Below, in pieces: positions 2,976-8,290 of a stretch of 8,901 bases of DNA; the first letter of the stretch is position 1; every line of letters begins with the position of its first letter. This DNA is from an uncultured Mycoplasma sp. (GTDB lineage Bacteria > Bacillota_I > Bacilli_A > RF39 > UBA660), in the NCBI GenBank assembly GCA_964430785.1, contig CAYSFJ010000014.1:13856-22756 (forward strand), written 5' to 3'. A program made the position numbers and the translations under genes. A model generated the notes under the pieces. That model was not told the origin of the DNA. It did no database searches and saw only the letters and a list, made by a program, of their open reading frames with translations.

Positions 2976-3007
2976 AAAAAAATCGGCTTCACAAAGCGAA
3001 GCACGAT
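2976..3007 (-). terminator. Rho-independent terminator / conserved GC-rich hairpin immediately after target gene 1
   Basis: Minus strand reads ATCG-T-GCTTCGC-TTT-GTGAAGC-CGAT followed by TTTTTTT. The stem is 2982..2990 paired with 2998..3007, and the T-run is 2976..2982. It starts directly after the TAA stop at 3008..3010. A near-identical copy occurs at 6548..6573. Confidence 0.7.
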
Positions 3008-4141
3008 TTAACTTCCAAGAATTATCTTATATGGATTACCCTCAGAACCATCTCCTGATATAACATATACATTAGATTTAAGATATAAGACTGGCCTAAC
3101 TGCAAAACCGCGATACGCAATGTCGCTGTAGAGACCGCCATCGTTGTCGACGTTAACAGGGCTTGAAGCATTGTAAGCTGTCATTGTCCATTCATATCCT
3201 TTTGTAAATAACCAATTGTTTTTATAACTGCTATTCATTGCATAACCATAATCACTTGCATACATTAAACCGACCTTTAAAGTAGTACTTGTTTGACTAG
3301 TTTTTTCTTTCTCATATTGAGTTTTACCGGTAGTTGTTGATGAACTACCATCAAAACCAATATTCCAATATATCCCATCATATATCATATTATAATAATC
3401 TCCACTTGAGGCTATACCATTTTCAGTATAATCACATTTGGCAACTGGTTTATATGAACTAGTGTAACATGAATAGCAATACGCTGCACAAGTAGTATTA
3501 TTTCTACTATTAATTTGGCCTAAAAAGCATTCATTTAAATTTTTTTGAATTGTGCTTCCAACCCAAGTAGAACTAGATGTTGTATTTGCATTATATGAAA
3601 GTCCTCCTATTGAATCATTTCTTATTATTTTAACAAGTCCATTATTATTCCAAGTTGAACAAGTTCCATCGGTATTTATAGCTGTACATACTGGAGTTTT
3701 ACCAATTATTCTATAAAGCTCACCATTATACCAAATATAATTATTAGGGTTATTTCCTTTATATCTAACTCCATAATCTGATTTATATAAAAGCCCATTT
3801 CCACTTACAACTCCATCCGTACTTGTTGTATTAACTACATTAGAAAGAAGTTTAGGACTACTTGTAAATGATACATTACAACTTACATTTCCAGTAATAT
3901 TTTTAATATCTAATTTCCAATTATCAATATCCCATACTCCATCAGCATTATCACAGTTTATATCTATTTGATATAAACCTTTACTAGGAAATGTATTAGA
4001 TACTTTACCATCAACAAGTAAAGCAATAGTACTTCCATTATAACCAAATGTCTTTTTAGGTTTATTACTAATTACTAATAAAGTACATATCATTATAACA
4101 ATTAATATTGTACATATAATAATCTTCTTATTATTTTTCAT
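3008..4141 (-). CDS. DGR variable (target) protein 1: N-terminal membrane anchor, Cys-rich C-terminal putative C-type-lectin-fold domain carrying VR1
   Basis: 377-aa ORF with a TM/signal anchor KKIIICTILIVIMICTLLVI. The C-terminal module (NPNNYIWYNGELYRIIG...VGLMYASDYGYA...NNWLF..EWTMTAY) is paralogous to the one in 6581..8290. VR1 encodes ASSPVNVDNDGGLYSDIAYRGFAV. The start overlaps the stop of the upstream ORF (ATGAAAAATAA). Confidence 0.9.
   Translation of the reverse strand: MKNNKKIIICTILIVIMICTLLVISNKPKKTFGYNGSTIALLVDGKVSNTFPSKGLYQIDINCDNADGVWDIDNWKLDIKNITGNVSCNVSFTSSPKLLSNVVNTTSTDGVVSGNGLLYKSDYGVRYKGNNPNNYIWYNGELYRIIGKTPVCTAINTDGTCSTWNNNGLVKIIRNDSIGGLSYNANTTSSSTWVGSTIQKNLNECFLGQINSRNNTTCAAYCYSCYTSSYKPVAKCDYTENGIASSGDYYNMIYDGIYWNIGFDGSSSTTTGKTQYEKEKTSQTSTTLKVGLMYASDYGYAMNSSYKNNWLFTKGYEWTMTAYNASSPVNVDNDGGLYSDIAYRGFAVRPVLYLKSNVYVISGDGSEGNPYKIILGS
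3098..3170 (-). repeat. DGR variable repeat VR1
   Basis: Aligns without gaps to the TR (4558..4630, offset 1460). There are 11 mismatches, each at a plus-strand T of the TR, which is an A on the coding strand. They fall at TR positions 4565, 4571, 4572, 4580, 4584, 4586, 4590, 4594, 4602, 4608 and 4622. Confidence 0.92.
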
Positions 4142-4400
4142 TTAATAACCTTCTTTCTAATATATTAATTAAATTTACTTTGAAATAATAATTTAAATAA
4201 TTATTATTTTCATATTCCTTTTTTACTATAATATCTAACTTATCTAATATTATATAATTAGTTTCATACTTATTTAAATTTTTATTTATATAATTAAATA
4301 TTAACTTATCTTCATCAAAAGTATAATATTTATTATTTTTAATTATTAATATTAAATAATTTTGATAAATATGTTTTAAAACATTATATCTTTCTTTCAT
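4131..4400 (-). CDS. Small MutS-domain-I-like (MSL-like) protein, truncated paralog of 6072..6392
   Basis: 89 aa. YNVLKHIYQNYLILIIKNNKYYTFDEDKLIFNYI matches the pattern of the E. coli MutS N-terminus ([37 protein letters not shown], from memory). It also matches the paralog's FLILYKNHGKFYQCRDMDAYIMNLL. The stop overlaps the target-1 start, suggesting translational coupling. No clear Shine-Dalgarno sequence was seen. Confidence 0.55.
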   Translation of the reverse strand: MKERYNVLKHIYQNYLILIIKNNKYYTFDEDKLIFNYINKNLNKYETNYIILDKLDIIVKKEYENNNYLNYYFKVNLINILERRLLNEK

Positions 4401-4411
4401 ATTATTTTATT

Positions 4412-4452
4412 AGATGTCGATAGAAAGAGTACGTATACTCTTTCGTCCATCT
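4412..4452 (-). other. Strong imperfect hairpin in the non-coding spacer downstream of the TR
   Basis: A 9-bp stem pairs gaaagagta (4423..4431) with tactctttc (4436..4444) around the loop cgta. An outer 5-bp stem pairs agatg (4412..4416) with catct (4448..4452), with 2 more bp across the internal loop. No T-run follows on the minus strand, so it does not look like a classical terminator. Confidence 0.45.
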
Positions 4453-4557
4453 ATTATCTTTTAAAAGTATAACTTTTAAGGAAAGTTTATGTTTCTTATG
4501 CTTAACACTTTATAGCCATAACCATAAAACCTAAACCAAACATAAGAAGCTCTAAAA

Positions 4558-4630
4558 AACTGCATAACCGTTATACGCATTGTTGTTGTTGAGTCCGCCA
4601 TTGTTGTTGACGTTAACAGGGTTTGAAGCA
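4558..4630 (-). repeat. DGR template repeat (TR), non-coding
   Basis: Coding-sense sequence is GGTGCTTCAAACCCTGTTAACGTCAACAACAATGGCGGACTCAACAACAACAATGCGTATAACGGTTATGCAGTT. In the VR frame it reads G A S N P V N V N N N G G L N N N N A Y N G Y A V. It has 25 adenines, 20 of them in 10 AAC/AAT codons. It matches both VRs except at adenines. It begins 32 nt after the RT stop codon. Confidence 0.92.
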
Positions 4631-4662
4631 CCTTTTTTCTAAAAAACTTCCCTATATTTATA

Positions 4663-5724
4663 TTAATAGTACCTATCAATAATATGTTTTATTTTATCTT
4701 TATTTACAAAACTATAACTATGTAAATAATTTTCTAAAGAATAAAAATATTTTTCAAATGTAATCATATTATTTTGATACCTATAAATATCTTTCTTAAT
4801 ACCTTTTTTTATATTATTTCTTGCACTTTTACTTAAATTAATAATAGTTTTATTATTAATTATTCTAAAATTATAACCTAGAAAATCAAATCCATTTTTT
4901 AAGTTTACAATATAAGTTTTCTTTTCATTTATTTCTAAATTATAGGAATGAATAAAATCTATAATTTTATTTTTACATATTTTCAAATAATCTAAATCAT
5001 TTGAAAATATTACATAATCATCCATATATGAAAGCATATATTTTAAATGTAAATTATGAATTATATAATGATGTAATTTATATAAATAAAATATAGCAAA
5101 AAATTGTTGTACTTGGCCTCCTAAAGAAAGACCAACATCTTTTTTATATCTAGGTAATTTTTCATTAACGTTTTTTTCTAATACAACTATTTTATCATTA
5201 ATATAATCATAGTTAGTGCTATCAATTATTTTGCAAACTAAGTTATATTCTTCACTAGTTAAATCATTTATTATTAAAGATTTTAAAATATTATGATCAA
5301 TAGAATAAAAATATTTTTTTATATCAATTTTTAATACATAAATATCTTTATTACAGTGTTTTAGCTTTTCAATATCAGAAAGTAATAAGTTAATAGCATA
5401 TGTTAATCCCATACCCTTTCTTGTTGCAGTTATTTCCTTACACAAGTATTTTGAAAGTTTGGGAATCAAAATATATTTTGCTACATAATGATTAATAATT
5501 TTATTAATTATACTTTCACTCATAACAACTCTAACTTTTGGTTCTCTTACTACGAAAATATTATAACTACTACCTTGATATAAGCCATTTTCTAAAATAT
5601 TTATTATATAAACTAAATACTCTATTTTACATTTTTCAAATGCAAGAATTTTCTTTCTATTTTTCACTCCTTTCAATATTTCATTATTATATATATCTAA
5701 TAAATCACTTATTTTTACTATCAT
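4663..5724 (-). CDS. DGR reverse transcriptase
   Basis: 353 aa. RT motifs seen: KVRVVMSESIINKIINHYVAKYIL (motifs 1/2), YVLKIDIKKYFYSIDHNIL (motif 3), GLSLGGQVQQFFAIFYL (motif 4, DGR-type I/LGxxxSQ with S replaced by Q), SYMDDYVIFS (catalytic YxDD) and INEKKTYIV..GFDFLGYNF (motifs 6/7). The start overlaps the avd 3' end by 20 nt, and the TR lies immediately downstream. Confidence 0.95.
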   Translation of the reverse strand: MIVKISDLLDIYNNEILKGVKNRKKILAFEKCKIEYLVYIINILENGLYQGSSYNIFVVREPKVRVVMSESIINKIINHYVAKYILIPKLSKYLCKEITATRKGMGLTYAINLLLSDIEKLKHCNKDIYVLKIDIKKYFYSIDHNILKSLIINDLTSEEYNLVCKIIDSTNYDYINDKIVVLEKNVNEKLPRYKKDVGLSLGGQVQQFFAIFYLYKLHHYIIHNLHLKYMLSYMDDYVIFSNDLDYLKICKNKIIDFIHSYNLEINEKKTYIVNLKNGFDFLGYNFRIINNKTIINLSKSARNNIKKGIKKDIYRYQNNMITFEKYFYSLENYLHSYSFVNKDKIKHIIDRYY

Positions 5725-6088
5725 AGTCTATCTTATTATCTAACCATTTATTACACATTCGATTTATTTCAGACAACTTATATGAAACTTTTTTTAATGA
5801 TGTTTCAGCAATATAACCTTTAATAAATAATCTTTCTATAATGTAATCAATAGTATTTATAAGTGCATTTATTTCTACTTTATATGAACTTATTAATTTA
5901 TAATTATCTTCATTATTAGTTTTATTTATAAAATACAATAATTCTATAGATAACTCCTTTAATTTATTTTTATAAAAATAATCTTTTTTAGGAATATTTT
6001 CTATTATCTTATCTAGAATATTCATAAAATCTTTATACTTAGTTAGTATTAAAAATTCTTTAGATGATGCATTATTTTCTAAGTTCAT
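5705..6088 (-). CDS. avd: Avd (accessory variability determinant), four-helix-bundle family
   Basis: 127 aa, a typical Avd size, located directly upstream of and overlapping the RT. ILTKYKDFMNILDKIIENIPKKDYF resembles the Bordetella phage bAvd segment ending in IPRKH (from memory). LSEINRMCNKWLDN resembles the bAvd C-terminal helix. The C-terminal tail is basic. Confidence 0.8.
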   Translation of the reverse strand: MNLENNASSKEFLILTKYKDFMNILDKIIENIPKKDYFYKNKLKELSIELLYFINKTNNEDNYKLISSYKVEINALINTIDYIIERLFIKGYIAETSLKKVSYKLSEINRMCNKWLDNKIDYDSKNK

Positions 6089-6392
6089 TTTCTATTAAAC
6101 CTATTATTTGTTCAAGTTTTTCATTTGAGCATTTATTTAAATTATCAATTAAATAATCTAATCTTTTCCTTTTATCTAAATTTTTTAATGCTAAATCTAA
6201 ATATTTTGGATAATTATTTAGTTTATCAAAATTCTTAATAACAGGATTTTTATCTACCTCAATAATTTGATAAGATATTTTAGCATCTTCCAAAGTATTT
6301 AAAACTTTTACTAAACTATTATCAGGAAATCCACATAAACCATCTTTGAGTACCTTATAACCAAATAGTAAATTCATAATATAAGCATCCAT
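6072..6392 (-). CDS. MutS-domain-I-like (MSL-like) DGR accessory protein; the ORF as called is 5'-truncated by a frame break
   Basis: LLFGYKVLKDGLCGFPDNSLVKVLNTLEDAKISYQIIE matches the pattern of MutS domain I (LLDISLTKRG...[29 protein letters not shown]). The homologous reading frame continues upstream of ATG 6392 (…NVKSFLILYKNHGKFYQCRD-MDAY…) with no start codon until a TAA at 6468..6470. An RBS-preceded ATG at 6510 lies in a different frame. Confidence 0.7.
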   Translation of the reverse strand: MDAYIMNLLFGYKVLKDGLCGFPDNSLVKVLNTLEDAKISYQIIEVDKNPVIKNFDKLNNYPKYLDLALKNLDKRKRLDYLIDNLNKCSNEKLEQIIGLIENELRK

Positions 6393-6444
6393 ATCTCTAC
6401 ATTGATAAAATTTACCATGATTTTTATAAAGTATTAGAAATGAC

Positions 6445-6495
6445 TTTACATTAGTACCCCCCCGACTTTACATTTTCTTTACATTCATTTACATT
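6445..6495 (-). repeat. Four phased copies of the octamer TTTACATT (minus strand AATGTAAA)
   Basis: Copies lie at 6445..6452, 6467..6474, 6478..6485 and 6488..6495, with spacings of 22, 11 and 10 nt. The first two extend to an 11-mer, gactttacatt (6442..6452 and 6464..6474), and they flank the homopolymer. Confidence 0.6.
6457..6463 (-). repeat. C7 (minus strand G7) homopolymer at the frame break of the MSL-like gene
   Basis: Plus strand reads gtaCCCCCCCgac. It is the longest G/C homopolymer I noticed in this very AT-rich window. Losing one G would join the ATG-6510 frame to the 6072..6392 frame. Confidence 0.9.
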
Positions 6496-6540
6496 TTTAA
6501 ATAAGCTCATTTTTTTCCGTCCTTTCAAATTATTTATTTT

Positions 6541-6573
6541 TTTCAAAATCGGCTTCACAATGCGAAGCACGAT
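6541..6573 (-). terminator. Conserved GC-rich hairpin / weak terminator after target gene 2
   Basis: The hairpin is the same as at 2982..3007, with a single loop difference (a2995 versus t6561). The stem pairs 6548..6556 with 6564..6573. Only about 4 T residues follow on the minus strand, so read-through into the MSL-avd-RT operon is plausible. Confidence 0.5.
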
Positions 6574-6580
6574 TTATTAT

Positions 6581-8290
6581 TTACATTCCCAATACGTATG
6601 GGCTTGCCATTGTTCCATCACCAGACAATTTATTAACATTAGATTGAAGATACAAGACTGGCCGAACTGCATAACCGATATACGCATAGAGGTTGTTGAG
6701 CCCGCCACCGTAGTAGACGTCAACAGGGTGCGAAGCTCTGTAAGCTGTCATTGTCCATTCATAACTTTGACCAAATAGCCAATTATTAACCATTTGACTA
6801 TTAGCACTTCCATAACCCAAATTTCCAGTATAACTACTTATAGCATAGCCAAAATCGCTTGCATACATAAGTCCTACCATAGTATTTTCTGAAGTTTGTT
6901 TTGTTATCTCTTTAGCATAAAAATTACTTGAAGATAAACTATATGAATTAGCCATTCCAATGTTATAATAAACGCTTTCTATTATAGTACCATAACTATC
7001 ATTTTCATTAATACCATTTTGTGAATAATTACATACACCTTGATTAGTTGAATATGCATAGCAATATTTTGAACAACCATCTTTTTTACCTAAATAACAT
7101 GTATTTAAAAGTCCTTGAATACTGCTTCCATTCCAAGTTGAATTACCGGTTATATTGTAAGCATATGCTCCGATTGGATCAGCTTTAATAATTTTAACTC
7201 TATTTTCCCATTTAGTACACTGTGCTTCACCTTGTTTAAATGATATTCCGTCAATTGTAGTATCCTCAGTGATAGGATTAACCTCTAAACATACTGGTAC
7301 ATAACCAATAATTCTCCACAACTCATTATTAAAATATACATAATTATTTGGATTATTACCTTGATATCTATATTGATTTGTATTATTATCTGTTACATTA
7401 GTTATTACACCATCCCCAGATGTACCAATACCATTTATAATAACATCTGATAAAAGTGTACCAGTTACATTACTAGATGTAATAAGTGATGCACTTGCAC
7501 CATCATTTGCACCATTTTTAATTGAAATCATTTTATTAATATTATCCCACTCAATATCCGAAGAATTAATGCCACTTAAACTAGATAATGAATAATTACT
7601 ATTAGGATTATTATATGGATCTTGGGCAACATTTATATTTATTTGATTTACTGGTTCAGTTTGATAACAAGTAATATTTGTCACATTAAATACTCCAGAA
7701 TATTTTTTATTCTTTAAATTAGATTGATCATATGCTAAATTATAAAATTTAGTATTTATAGTCCAGTTATGTACTGAAGTGCTACCTTTTTTAGAATTAG
7801 ATATTTTTGCATTTTTTACTACAGTCATATTTGCTGAAGGAAAATCATCCTCACTTAAAAATTCATTACTACCCACTTCTGGACCTATAACTTGTAATGT
7901 AAATTCTTTAAAAGTTCCACTTGTTTTCGTAGTATATTTATCTGAAGAACTATCATAAGTAAAATTAATATCATAAGTACATGTTATTCCTACTTTATCA
8001 CTATTAGCATCTAAACTTACATTTAACATGCTTGTGCTACTAGCAATATAATTTGAACTAGTTTCCTCAGTCATATTGTATGGATCAACTGTTATTGAAA
8101 AGTTTGTTGATGTAGTATCAAGTACAGCATTATCTATTTTATTTGCAGTAATATTAACGTTCATAACATTATTTAAATTTACATCAAACATTCCTAAGTA
8201 TCCAAAAGATACCGTTATGGCTAGTACTAATGTAATTATAATTGATAATATTAATACTTTCTTCTTATCATCTATTTTCTTCATAATCAT
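6581..8290 (-). CDS. DGR variable (target) protein 2: membrane anchor, long N/S/T-rich ectodomain, Cys-rich C-terminal putative lectin-fold domain carrying VR2
   Basis: 569-aa ORF with TM anchor VLILSIIITLVLAITVSFGYLG. The C-terminal module (NPNNYVYFNNELWRIIG...VGLMYASDFGYA...NNWLF..EWTMTAY) is paralogous to target 1. VR2 encodes ASHPVDVYYGGGLNNLYAYIGYAV. The true start is probably the second ATG (8284), because the AGGA RBS is only 2 nt from ATG 8290 but 8 nt from ATG 8284. Confidence 0.9.
   Translation of the reverse strand: MIMKKIDDKKKVLILSIIITLVLAITVSFGYLGMFDVNLNNVMNVNITANKIDNAVLDTTSTNFSITVDPYNMTEETSSNYIASSTSMLNVSLDANSDKVGITCTYDINFTYDSSSDKYTTKTSGTFKEFTLQVIGPEVGSNEFLSEDDFPSANMTVVKNAKISNSKKGSTSVHNWTINTKFYNLAYDQSNLKNKKYSGVFNVTNITCYQTEPVNQININVAQDPYNNPNSNYSLSSLSGINSSDIEWDNINKMISIKNGANDGASASLITSSNVTGTLLSDVIINGIGTSGDGVITNVTDNNTNQYRYQGNNPNNYVYFNNELWRIIGYVPVCLEVNPITEDTTIDGISFKQGEAQCTKWENRVKIIKADPIGAYAYNITGNSTWNGSSIQGLLNTCYLGKKDGCSKYCYAYSTNQGVCNYSQNGINENDSYGTIIESVYYNIGMANSYSLSSSNFYAKEITKQTSENTMVGLMYASDFGYAISSYTGNLGYGSANSQMVNNWLFGQSYEWTMTAYRASHPVDVYYGGGLNNLYAYIGYAVRPVLYLQSNVNKLSGDGTMASPYVLGM
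6665..6736 (-). repeat. DGR variable repeat VR2
   Basis: Aligns without gaps to the TR (offset 2107). There are 12 mismatches, all at TR coding-strand adenines: TR positions 4571, 4581, 4583, 4584, 4594, 4601, 4602, 4605, 4608, 4614, 4623 and 4624. Homology ends at TR 4629/4630. Confidence 0.92.

Follow-up and report, generated by a model that had tools for sequence, protein, structure and literature searches.

The DNA considered here is a stretch of 8,901 nt from an uncultured Mycoplasma sp. (contig CAYSFJ010000014.1, positions 13,856 to 22,756), hereafter called the window, to which all coordinates refer. A 5.3-kb segment of it (3008-8290) carries the genes and repeats collected in Table 1, which we interpret as the cassette of a diversity-generating retroelement (DGR). 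According to the list of open reading frames (ORFs), all ORFs of interest are located on the minus strand, and with translation table 11 no gene of the window contains an in-frame stop codon. Read along that strand, the order is target2 - MSL1 - avd - RT - template repeat (TR) with a structured RNA - MSL2 - target1, where RT encodes a reverse transcriptase and the MSL genes encode MutS-like proteins; each target gene carries a variable repeat (VR). We put the probability at about 0.9 that this is a DGR located on the chromosome of an AT-rich bacterium of the human gut, with a single TR for both targets, an RT, an Avd-like protein and two MutS-like genes.

Table 1. Features of the DGR cassette, in minus-strand order (coordinates of the 8,901-nt window)
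Feature	Position	Strand	Description
target2	6581..8290	-	569 aa; N-terminal hydrophobic anchor; C-terminal domain paralogous to that of target1
VR2	6665..6736	-	72 nt; 3' end 81 nt ahead of the target2 stop codon
post-target2 element	6545..6576	-	32 nt; hairpin GCTTCGC-ATT-GTGAAGC, just past the stop codon
MSL1	6072..6510	-	MutS-domain-I-like; frameshifted: fragment 6510..6451 (19 aa, stop) and ORF 6392..6072 (106 aa, internal ATG)
poly-G tract	6457..6463	-	G7 as read on the coding strand; lies in the MSL1 5' region, out of frame
avd	5705..6088	-	127 aa; overlaps MSL1 and RT
RT	4663..5724	-	353 aa; YMDD intact; RVT_1 E 1.2e-16
structured DGR RNA	4412..4652	-	brackets the TR; alignment of 33 loci, six helices
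P1 clamp	4652..4645 with 4487..4480	-	GGGAAGUU just upstream of the TR pairs with AACUUUCC about 70 nt downstream
TR	4558..4630	-	73 nt, 25 adenines; begins 33 nt past the RT stop codon
P2	4548..4541 with 4500..4493	-	segment 9 nt past the TR pairs with the segment directly before the P1 3' strand
P3 inner hairpin	4527..4510	-	from the 33-locus alignment
P4 short stem-loop	4477..4463	-	followed by an A-rich stretch, 4462..4451
P5 outer stem	4452..4448 with 4416..4412	-	from the 33-locus alignment
P6	4444..4423	-	9-bp stem, UACG tetraloop
MSL2	4131..4400	-	89 aa; shorter MutS-domain-I-like protein; overlaps the target1 start
target1	3008..4141	-	377 aa; N-terminal membrane-anchor helix, variable C-terminal domain
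VR1	3098..3170	-	73 nt; 3' end 87 nt ahead of the target1 stop codon
post-target1 element	2979..3010	-	32 nt; hairpin GCTTCGC-TTT-GTGAAGC, then T-run, just past the stop codon

A repeat search of the window returned a 73-nt repeat in exactly three copies (3098-3170, 4558-4630 and 6665-6737) and no fourth. A gapless alignment of the TR (25 A, 18 C, 17 T and 13 G) with VR1 spans 73 nt (4630..4558 with 3170..3098) and contains 11 mismatches; that with VR2, likewise gapless, spans 72 nt (4629..4558 with 6736..6665) and contains 12, and every one of these falls on a TR adenine (11/11 and 12/12). The sole other mismatch is the boundary base 4630/6737 (T vs A), which forms the 5' edge of the VR2 homology. 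A preliminary description, made from the letters of this DNA, had already reported gapless alignments with 11 and 12 mismatches confined to the 25 TR adenines; recomputation gave the same result, its figure of 71 aligned positions has to be replaced by the actual lengths of 73 and 72, and realignment turned up no mismatch at a non-adenine template position. Under a hypergeometric model, the mismatches would be confined to A by chance with a probability of 1.25e-6 in VR1 and of 3.4e-7 in VR2; the product is 4.2e-13. Three of the changes at TR adenines are synonymous, namely TCA to TCG and GGA to GGG in VR2 and GGA to GGT in VR1, in a reading frame that was verified by the translation of the VRs into the listed target proteins. 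The 50 nt of coding DNA immediately 5' of the VRs, in contrast, differ between the two targets at all four base types. The view that a mutational process rather than selection alone has shaped the VRs, advanced in the preliminary description, is therefore borne out by the restriction of 23 out of 23 differences to adenines, synonymous ones included, and by the differences at all base types in the 5' flanks.

Between the two VRs there are differences as well, at 17 A-templated positions and at the boundary base, and the repeats stand out as GC-rich islands (GC content 0.405 at 3001-3200, 0.425 at 6601-6800 and 42% in the TR, against 0.10-0.28 in the surroundings); both points had been made before and were confirmed. 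Twenty of the 25 TR adenines sit in ten AAY codons, which are joined by two TAT codons, and in none of these codons can mutation lead to a stop codon; together, these codons permit about 9e12 protein variants per target. The TR/VR pairs of relatives do carry non-adenine mismatches and codon-length offsets. Ten distinct TRs of 69-76 nt occur among close relatives and differ by whole-codon steps, and certain VRs are offset by one codon against the TR of their own locus (VR 6571-6647 of L006 and VR 3316-3394 of L007; the L-numbers denote related loci or contigs that were compared with the window). By sequence comparison, TRs would appear to change while the VRs lag. The locus L010 possesses a second TR-like copy (5255-5367) with conserved 5' and 3' RNA-flank sequences; it lies about 4.8 kb upstream of the RT-linked TR, beside another gene of 439 aa, and may represent an additional TR or what is left of a different cassette.

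The closest relative of the window RT with a solved structure is 8ub7_A, a 328-aa chain named 'Reverse transcriptase' (E 3e-11 with the single sequence). A profile of 13 members of the RT family matches this chain with an E value of 3.5e-29, in an alignment that spans the N-terminal/finger region and the palm; the same profile gives E values of 4.7e-15 for the best group II intron RT and of about 1e-6 for retron RTs. PDB entry 8ub7 was deposited together with a chain named 'Avd', and its RT reads IGSLTSQ at the signature motif; from these features and the chain length we infer that 8ub7 is the Bordetella bRT-Avd complex, an identification that is unconfirmed from the text of the paper. PADLOC returned generic RT-domain matches for the window RT and no specific defence-RT family. 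The profile comparison thus supports a grouping with a putative DGR RT, and the clustering with retron, group II intron or defence RTs that the preliminary description had named as grounds for abandoning its interpretation was not found. The 127-aa ORF that overlaps RT fits Avd in its position, its size and this overlap. Taken together with the adenine-specific mismatches, the RT profile match and the Avd-like ORF, the earlier identification of a DGR with one TR, two VRs, an RT and Avd can be upheld.

Some further observations concern the RT and Avd of relatives. In the RT region 5100-5125 (residues about 199-210), the window clade reads LSLGGQVQQFFA and the RTs at 50-57% identity read the canonical LPIGNMTSQFLA. 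Protein P0012, a 390-aa RT homologue, bears a C-terminal Asn-rich extension (…NPNNVNNVNSDGNNNNDNVNN…) that resembles a read-through translation of its own TR. In a closely related cassette, that of L013, L014 and L015 (about 9600-11030), the RT is split into parts of 212 and 120 aa and avd is truncated; this decayed DGR was encountered in 36 blocks of the collection, with contigs that reach several hundred kb, and is widespread in human-gut samples.

The interval from the RT stop codon to the next ORF, which includes a non-coding stretch of 157 nt between the TR and MSL2, was aligned across 33 related loci, and the alignment yields the six helices P1 to P6 listed in Table 1. Pairing is seen in 89.4% of the alignment cells and falls to 42-56% if the partners are shifted by 1-3 columns; compensatory changes are present in 33 of the 42 pairs, and the covariation score of 0.538 (0.217 in shuffles) was reached by none of 500 shuffles. 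An Rfam scan of the window at E<=1 returned three chance snoRNA-like matches and no described family that covers the RNA flanking the TR. In the cryo-EM structure of the Bordetella phage DGR RNA, a template:primer duplex adjoins an upstream:downstream duplex termed 'cPRT Stop', a short stem-loop is accompanied by adenosines that dock into the duplex, and a tetraloop-capped stem-loop binds Avd (Handa et al., bioRxiv 10.1101/2023.10.23.563531); in the same study, Avd-binding stem-loops and cPRT Stop duplexes were predicted in 207 of 278 Avd-containing DGRs. The layout of the window RNA is that of the Bordetella phage DGR RNA, with a helix that we presume to bind Avd. This covariation-backed scaffold, found in a cassette that has the TR behind the RT, speaks for conservation of the priming and stop mechanism.

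The sequence of events envisaged for the window is modelled on the Bordetella phage DGR. The RT-Avd complex would bind the RNA bracketing the TR, priming would take place on the RNA itself just 3' of the TR, in the P2 region, and the TR would be copied into cDNA with random bases placed opposite the TR adenines until synthesis halts at the P1 duplex. The cDNA would then be exchanged for the VR close to the 3' end of either target, and directionality would come from the unlike 3' flanks of VR and TR. The last bases shared by TR and VRs are GCAGTT, after which the sequence continues with (A/C)GGCCAGTC in the VRs and with TTTTAGAGC in the TR; the 3' flanks read AGGCCAGTC or CGGCCAGTC in the VRs against TTTTAGAGC in the TR. 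Judged by analogy, this may be the kind of difference that distinguishes IMH (initiation of mutagenic homing) from IMH* in known DGRs.

At least 15 related loci were shown by a simple TR/VR finder to share the layout of the window, two A-biased VRs included; in these, the TR lies 17-40 nt past the RT, with one target upstream and one downstream. Because this order and the two A-biased VRs are shared by so many loci, the two-target avd-RT-TR layout is, on the present comparison of sequences, the norm in this clade. The preliminary description had regarded the gene order as unusual, a view that we do not share: avd-RT-TR is architecture B2 and MSL cassettes are architecture D, exemplified by the Legionella DGR, in the catalogue of Wu et al. 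2018 (NAR 46:11, PMC5758913), in which 13% of the DGRs have two targets. As a DGR, the element is ordinary, since gut bacteria are rich in DGRs and the architectural features that had been flagged are already catalogued. Its value lies in being a clean and compact example (5.3 kb, two targets, A-only) from a large DGR clade in AT-rich gut bacteria.

The exact RT sequence of the window is present on five further metagenome contigs, which differ from the window by 1-21 single-nucleotide polymorphisms (SNPs) each; these contigs come from two accession series, possibly from one or two studies, and may not be independent. RT homologues number 952, and RT relatives occur at 177 places in the GTDB species-representative genomes. 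Among the best 80 of these 177, nearly all carry the names 'Bacilli bacterium', 'Tenericutes' or 'Mycoplasma sp. CAG:472' (93-94% identity); the sources are the guts of humans, rabbits, ruminants and chickens. We would place these gut bacteria in the RF39 group; in a limited literature search, no paper was found that links DGRs with this group.

Both targets begin with an N-terminal membrane anchor and end in a common type of domain: the C-terminal 230 aa of target2 share 49% identity with target1, and a single family extends across 36 target genes. Clusters of target1 homologues number 3396. A profile of the C-terminal domain found no credible match among the PDB sequences. The targets are presumably displayed on the cell surface, where they would bind ligands. 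Two side observations concern target1 outside its VR codons. A comparison of L001 with the window revealed a cluster of ten SNPs at 3373-3455 (target1 residues 229-257), which is located outside the VR and is not adenine-specific; and in a set of 120 homologues, the variability at positions 227, 230 and 316 is second only to that of the VR codons. A second loop of target1 could be under diversifying selection or recombination, perhaps beside the VR surface.

The two elements that follow the target stop codons are identical at 31 of 32 nt, with the lone mismatch in the loop of a 7-bp hairpin; the coding DNA ahead of them is about 77% identical between the targets. A GC-rich hairpin follows the stop codon in 36 of 36 target genes of the family that were examined, mostly without a T-run. 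This structure may be the DGR target hairpin described by Guo et al. 2011 (PMC3240598), or it may simply be a terminator. In a sister clade (L021, L023, L027, L031, L065 and others), the motif AGTTATC[AC]ACA occurs after the hairpin, about 40-50 nt past the target stop codons, and resembles a DnaA box (TTATCCACA); searches for a DnaA-box-like motif in the window gave chance-level matches only.

Single-sequence searches of Pfam, NCBIfam and the PDB returned nothing useful for either of the two small ORFs or for either target. At the family level, 34 of 55 MSL1 members match Pfam MutS_I (PF01624; best E 5.4e-7), and the top PDB match of the MSL1 profile is the mismatch-binding domain I of MSH6 (E 0.2), over a stretch that includes the KFY...DA...GFP segment. 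The MSL2 family is kept downstream of the TR in 37 of the related loci retrieved. An exhaustive search with the MSL2 profile found 190 cluster representatives, all of about 85-110 aa, and recovered no full-length MutS. Comparison of the MSL2 and MSL1 families by hhalign was negative with a shallow alignment (probability 9.7%) and gave a probability of 89.7% (E 1.9e-6) with a deep one; 22 of 95 MSL2 members have weak MutS_I matches. The AlphaFold 2 (AF2) model of MSL2 has a predicted local distance difference test (pLDDT) score of 88.5, and its best Foldseek matches, to MutSbeta and to E. coli MutS, are not significant (TMq 0.40-0.50, E 0.29). The earlier proposal of two MutS-like ORFs holds, in view of the MutS_I matches and the hhalign result, at the level of the families, which are conserved in related cassettes and to which both small ORFs belong as MutS-domain-I-like proteins. 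MSL accessory genes as such have been catalogued (Wu et al. 2018, PMC5758913); no published description was found of two MSL paralogues within one cassette, and their presence sharpens the question of which role MSL proteins play in retrohoming.

In the window, the MSL1 frame that begins at 6510 (MSLFKNVNECKENVKSGGY, then a stop codon) terminates directly past the G7 tract, and the MutS-like N-terminus (TNVKSFLILYKNHGKFYQC...) resumes in another frame. The tract is G7 in four contigs of the window lineage and G8 in one (L003), and it ranges from G5 to G12 among relatives. There, G8 or G11 followed by TTAC gives an intact MSL1 of 146-147 aa; out of frame are L017 (G6), the G9 and G10 alleles of the TTAC type, and the G7 and G8 alleles of the window type, in which TAC follows. 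Over 2.5 kb, L006 and L009 differ only in having G8 and G9, respectively, and 16 further human-gut contigs range from G5 to G11, with the MSL1 frame open in five. In 13 of 74 loci, a run of at least six G precedes avd at a distance of 375-431 nt; in 670 kb of other sequence from these loci there are nine such runs. A length-variable homopolymer that toggles the frame of a coding sequence is what marks a phase-variable contingency locus, and the comparison of contigs suggests that this tract is such a slipped-strand contingency switch. Homopolymer assembly error may be a partial source of the differences in tract length, and the 106-aa product from the internal ATG may still be made.

It is conceivable, although we consider it rather doubtful, that a maintained slipped-strand tract toggles full-length MSL1 and makes the output of the DGR phase-variable, with MSL2 always present. 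If so, the output made variable would be retrohoming or the survival of mismatched cDNA:target heteroduplexes, and a random switch would be layered upon a targeted hypermutator. In the few loci available, no relation was found between the frame state of MSL1 and a clean A-only TR/VR pattern; L107 and L103 have MSL1 out of frame and yet show clean A-only patterns. A limited literature search found no paper that links DGR accessory genes with such homopolymer tracts, and we know of no earlier hint of DGR activity under phase-variable control; if functional, the MSL1 tract would be the first.

Diversification is active in the family and in a sister lineage. Among the 120 closest homologues of target1 (84-90% identity), the ten positions of highest entropy out of 377 aa are exactly the ten AAY codons; these reach 2.9-3.3 bits with 12-15 residue types each, and the non-adenine VR codons stay below 0.75 bits. 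In the sister lineage (93% RT identity), L006 and L007 have identical RT and TR sequences and are 99.3% identical over 3.6 kb, and 17 of their 24 differences are located in VR1 and one in the poly-G tract. In L037 and L047, the upstream flanks of the duplicated targets are 97-100% identical and the VRs only 73-77%. The two target copies of L031 and of L042 are fully identical, for which very recent duplication or assembly collapse is possible.

Several observations weigh against the interpretation as a functional DGR or against individual parts of it. The signature motif of DGR RTs is [I/V/L]GxxxSQ, which replaces QGxxxSP. The window RT and its closest relatives instead read LGGQVQQ, which retains L and G and has Q in the place of S; the motif of RTs at 50-57% identity is IGN(M/L/Q)(T/S)SQ. 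The Avd matches stay below the curated cut-offs both for Pfam bAvd (E 4.9e-7, 30.7 bits, cut-off 40) and for NCBIfam DivGenRetAVD (E 7.3e-8, 32.7 bits, cut-off 80), and the best PDB matches of the avd family profile are weak (4dwl, Bbp7, E 0.09; 8ub7_B, Avd, E 0.52). For the target C-terminal domain, the matches to DUF6273 (Pfam) are weak and below the curated threshold (target1 E 0.005), and the AF2 model of target1, which was built from a shallow alignment, has a pLDDT of 33.9. The hairpin is located about 90 nt from the VR (69-123 nt in the family) and has loops of 3-9 nt that are not GRNA, and the one after target1 is also terminator-like; in phage DGR targets, the hairpins lie 4-34 bp from the VR and carry a GRNA loop (Guo et al. 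2011, PMC3240598). The steps of the mechanism would apply here by analogy, and none was seen directly. MSL1 is frameshifted in the window, as is shown by comparison with the intact copies of 146-147 aa in L006 and L018. Finally, VR1 in three other contigs, VR2 in four and the TR in five are identical to those of the window despite SNPs elsewhere.

The last two points bear directly on a different history of the locus, in which it is a DGR by descent that has been switched off or is decaying in the window lineage, so that full-length MSL1 is not made and the VRs are frozen records. We regard this as possible, though we would sooner expect it to be wrong than right. In favour of such a history are the disrupted reading frame of MSL1, with G7 here and G8 in L003, VRs that do not vary among the assemblies covering them in spite of SNPs elsewhere, an RT motif that departs from the canonical SQ, and the wide distribution of decayed relatives such as L013-L015; on the other hand, RT, avd, MSL2 and the TR show no damage, nor does any of the six RNA helices, the tract is a single slip from an in-frame length, and clean A-only patterns also occur in L107 and L103, where MSL1 is likewise out of frame. 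Long disuse is moreover argued against by the perfection of the A-only pattern, with zero non-adenine mismatches between the TR and either VR, while relatives carry some. The core of the element is thus intact, and because MSL1 is out of frame and the VRs are identical in all available assemblies, the element of the window lineage may currently be quiescent. The element had previously been called 'complete', which is right for the core and has to be qualified by the frameshift of MSL1 at the poly-G tract; it had also been said to look recently active, which the data support for the family and for the sister lineage (L006 vs L007) but not for the window lineage, whose VRs are identical in the covering contigs.

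Two further explanations dispense with a chromosomal DGR. One of them would see in the repeats ordinary paralogous sequence, that is, the C-termini of two targets and a pseudogene fragment, under diversifying selection and with no reverse transcription involved. The targets are indeed true paralogues (49% identity over the C-terminal domain), and surface proteins often evolve fast; the supposed fragment, however, begins 33 nt past the RT gene, within a covarying RNA, all 23 differences fall on template adenines, three of them synonymous, the 50 nt 5' of the VRs differ at all four base types, and the pattern recurs in dozens of loci. The adenine-only differences and the association with an RT across relatives effectively refute this explanation, to which we assign a negligible probability. 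According to the other, the DGR is part of a prophage or another mobile element, and what it diversifies is a receptor-binding (tropism) protein like that of Bordetella phage BPP-1. The gene neighbourhood of the cassette does vary among relatives (serpin and DUF87 in the window, a 1974-aa protein in L006), and integrase, Bro-N and Abi_2 genes are found nearby in L013-L015. Phage structural genes, however, are absent from every locus table, genes for trigger factor, topoisomerase I and RelA/SpoT are among those close by, a membrane-anchor helix is found at the N-terminus of both targets, and the relatives reside on contigs of 0.1-1.5 Mb from bacterial metagenome-assembled genomes (MAGs); we consider a phage origin very improbable. 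A chromosomal DGR with two targets is the interpretation that we prefer.

Beyond target1, the window contains a serpin gene (1726-2901) and a partial gene for a DUF87 ATPase (1-1717), neither of which we count as part of the element. The genes downstream of target1 vary, the 1974-aa protein being encoded in L013 as well as in L006, and in L013-L015 the integrase, Bro-N and Abi_2 genes are located upstream of the cassette, which appears to be seated in a variable genomic region. A promoter scan of the window returned 70 sites where 81 were expected and is uninformative in such AT-rich DNA.

The prototype with which the window element has to be compared is the DGR of BPP-1, with its order mtd-avd-TR-brt. 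The two have in common the adenine-specific transfer from TR to VR, the (here putative) Avd partner, the position of the VR at the 3' end of the target, the AAY codons in the TR and the same RNA architecture (a duplex around the TR, a stem-loop with adenosines and a tetraloop-capped stem-loop), and the BPP-1 RT would be the closest solved relative of the window RT if 8ub7 is indeed bRT, which is unconfirmed. They differ in that the TR follows the RT in the window and precedes it in BPP-1, in the two targets of the window as opposed to one, in its two MutS-like accessory genes, in the motif LGGQVQQ as opposed to IGSLTSQ, and in a hairpin about 90 nt from the VR that lacks a GRNA loop as opposed to one at 4-34 bp. 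Furthermore, the window element is located on a bacterial chromosome and its targets are membrane-anchored, whereas the BPP-1 target is a phage tail-fibre protein.

The G-run of MSL1, for its part, resembles the poly-G contingency loci of Campylobacter (PMC3417653) in being a long tract located early in a coding sequence of an AT-rich genome, and in its differences in length between otherwise identical sequences, which switch the frame on and off. Here, however, the tract resides in a DGR accessory gene and not in a gene for a surface structure, and its variation is known from the comparison of contigs.

Closer to the window in gene content are the architectures B2 and D of Wu et al. (PMC5758913), with which it shares the avd-RT-TR core, a small neutral MutS-like gene that co-occurs with avd, and the two targets. 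MSL proteins were found in 16 of the 372 DGRs of that survey and measure 112-283 aa; MSL2, with 89 aa, falls below this range. The window also departs from these architectures in that its two MSL paralogues flank the RT-TR core, one on each side, and in that the upstream one contains a poly-G tract of variable length. In its presumed biology, the element can be placed beside the Bacteroides pilus-tip DGRs (bioRxiv 10.1101/2024.11.15.621889) and TvpA of Treponema denticola. It differs from these systems in its AT-rich hosts, known from 'Bacilli/Tenericutes' gut MAGs, in a target family with only a weak relationship to DUF6273, and in having MSL accessories rather than HRDC; like them, it would be a chromosomal DGR of a host-associated bacterium in which one TR serves several targets and the variable proteins are exposed at the cell surface.

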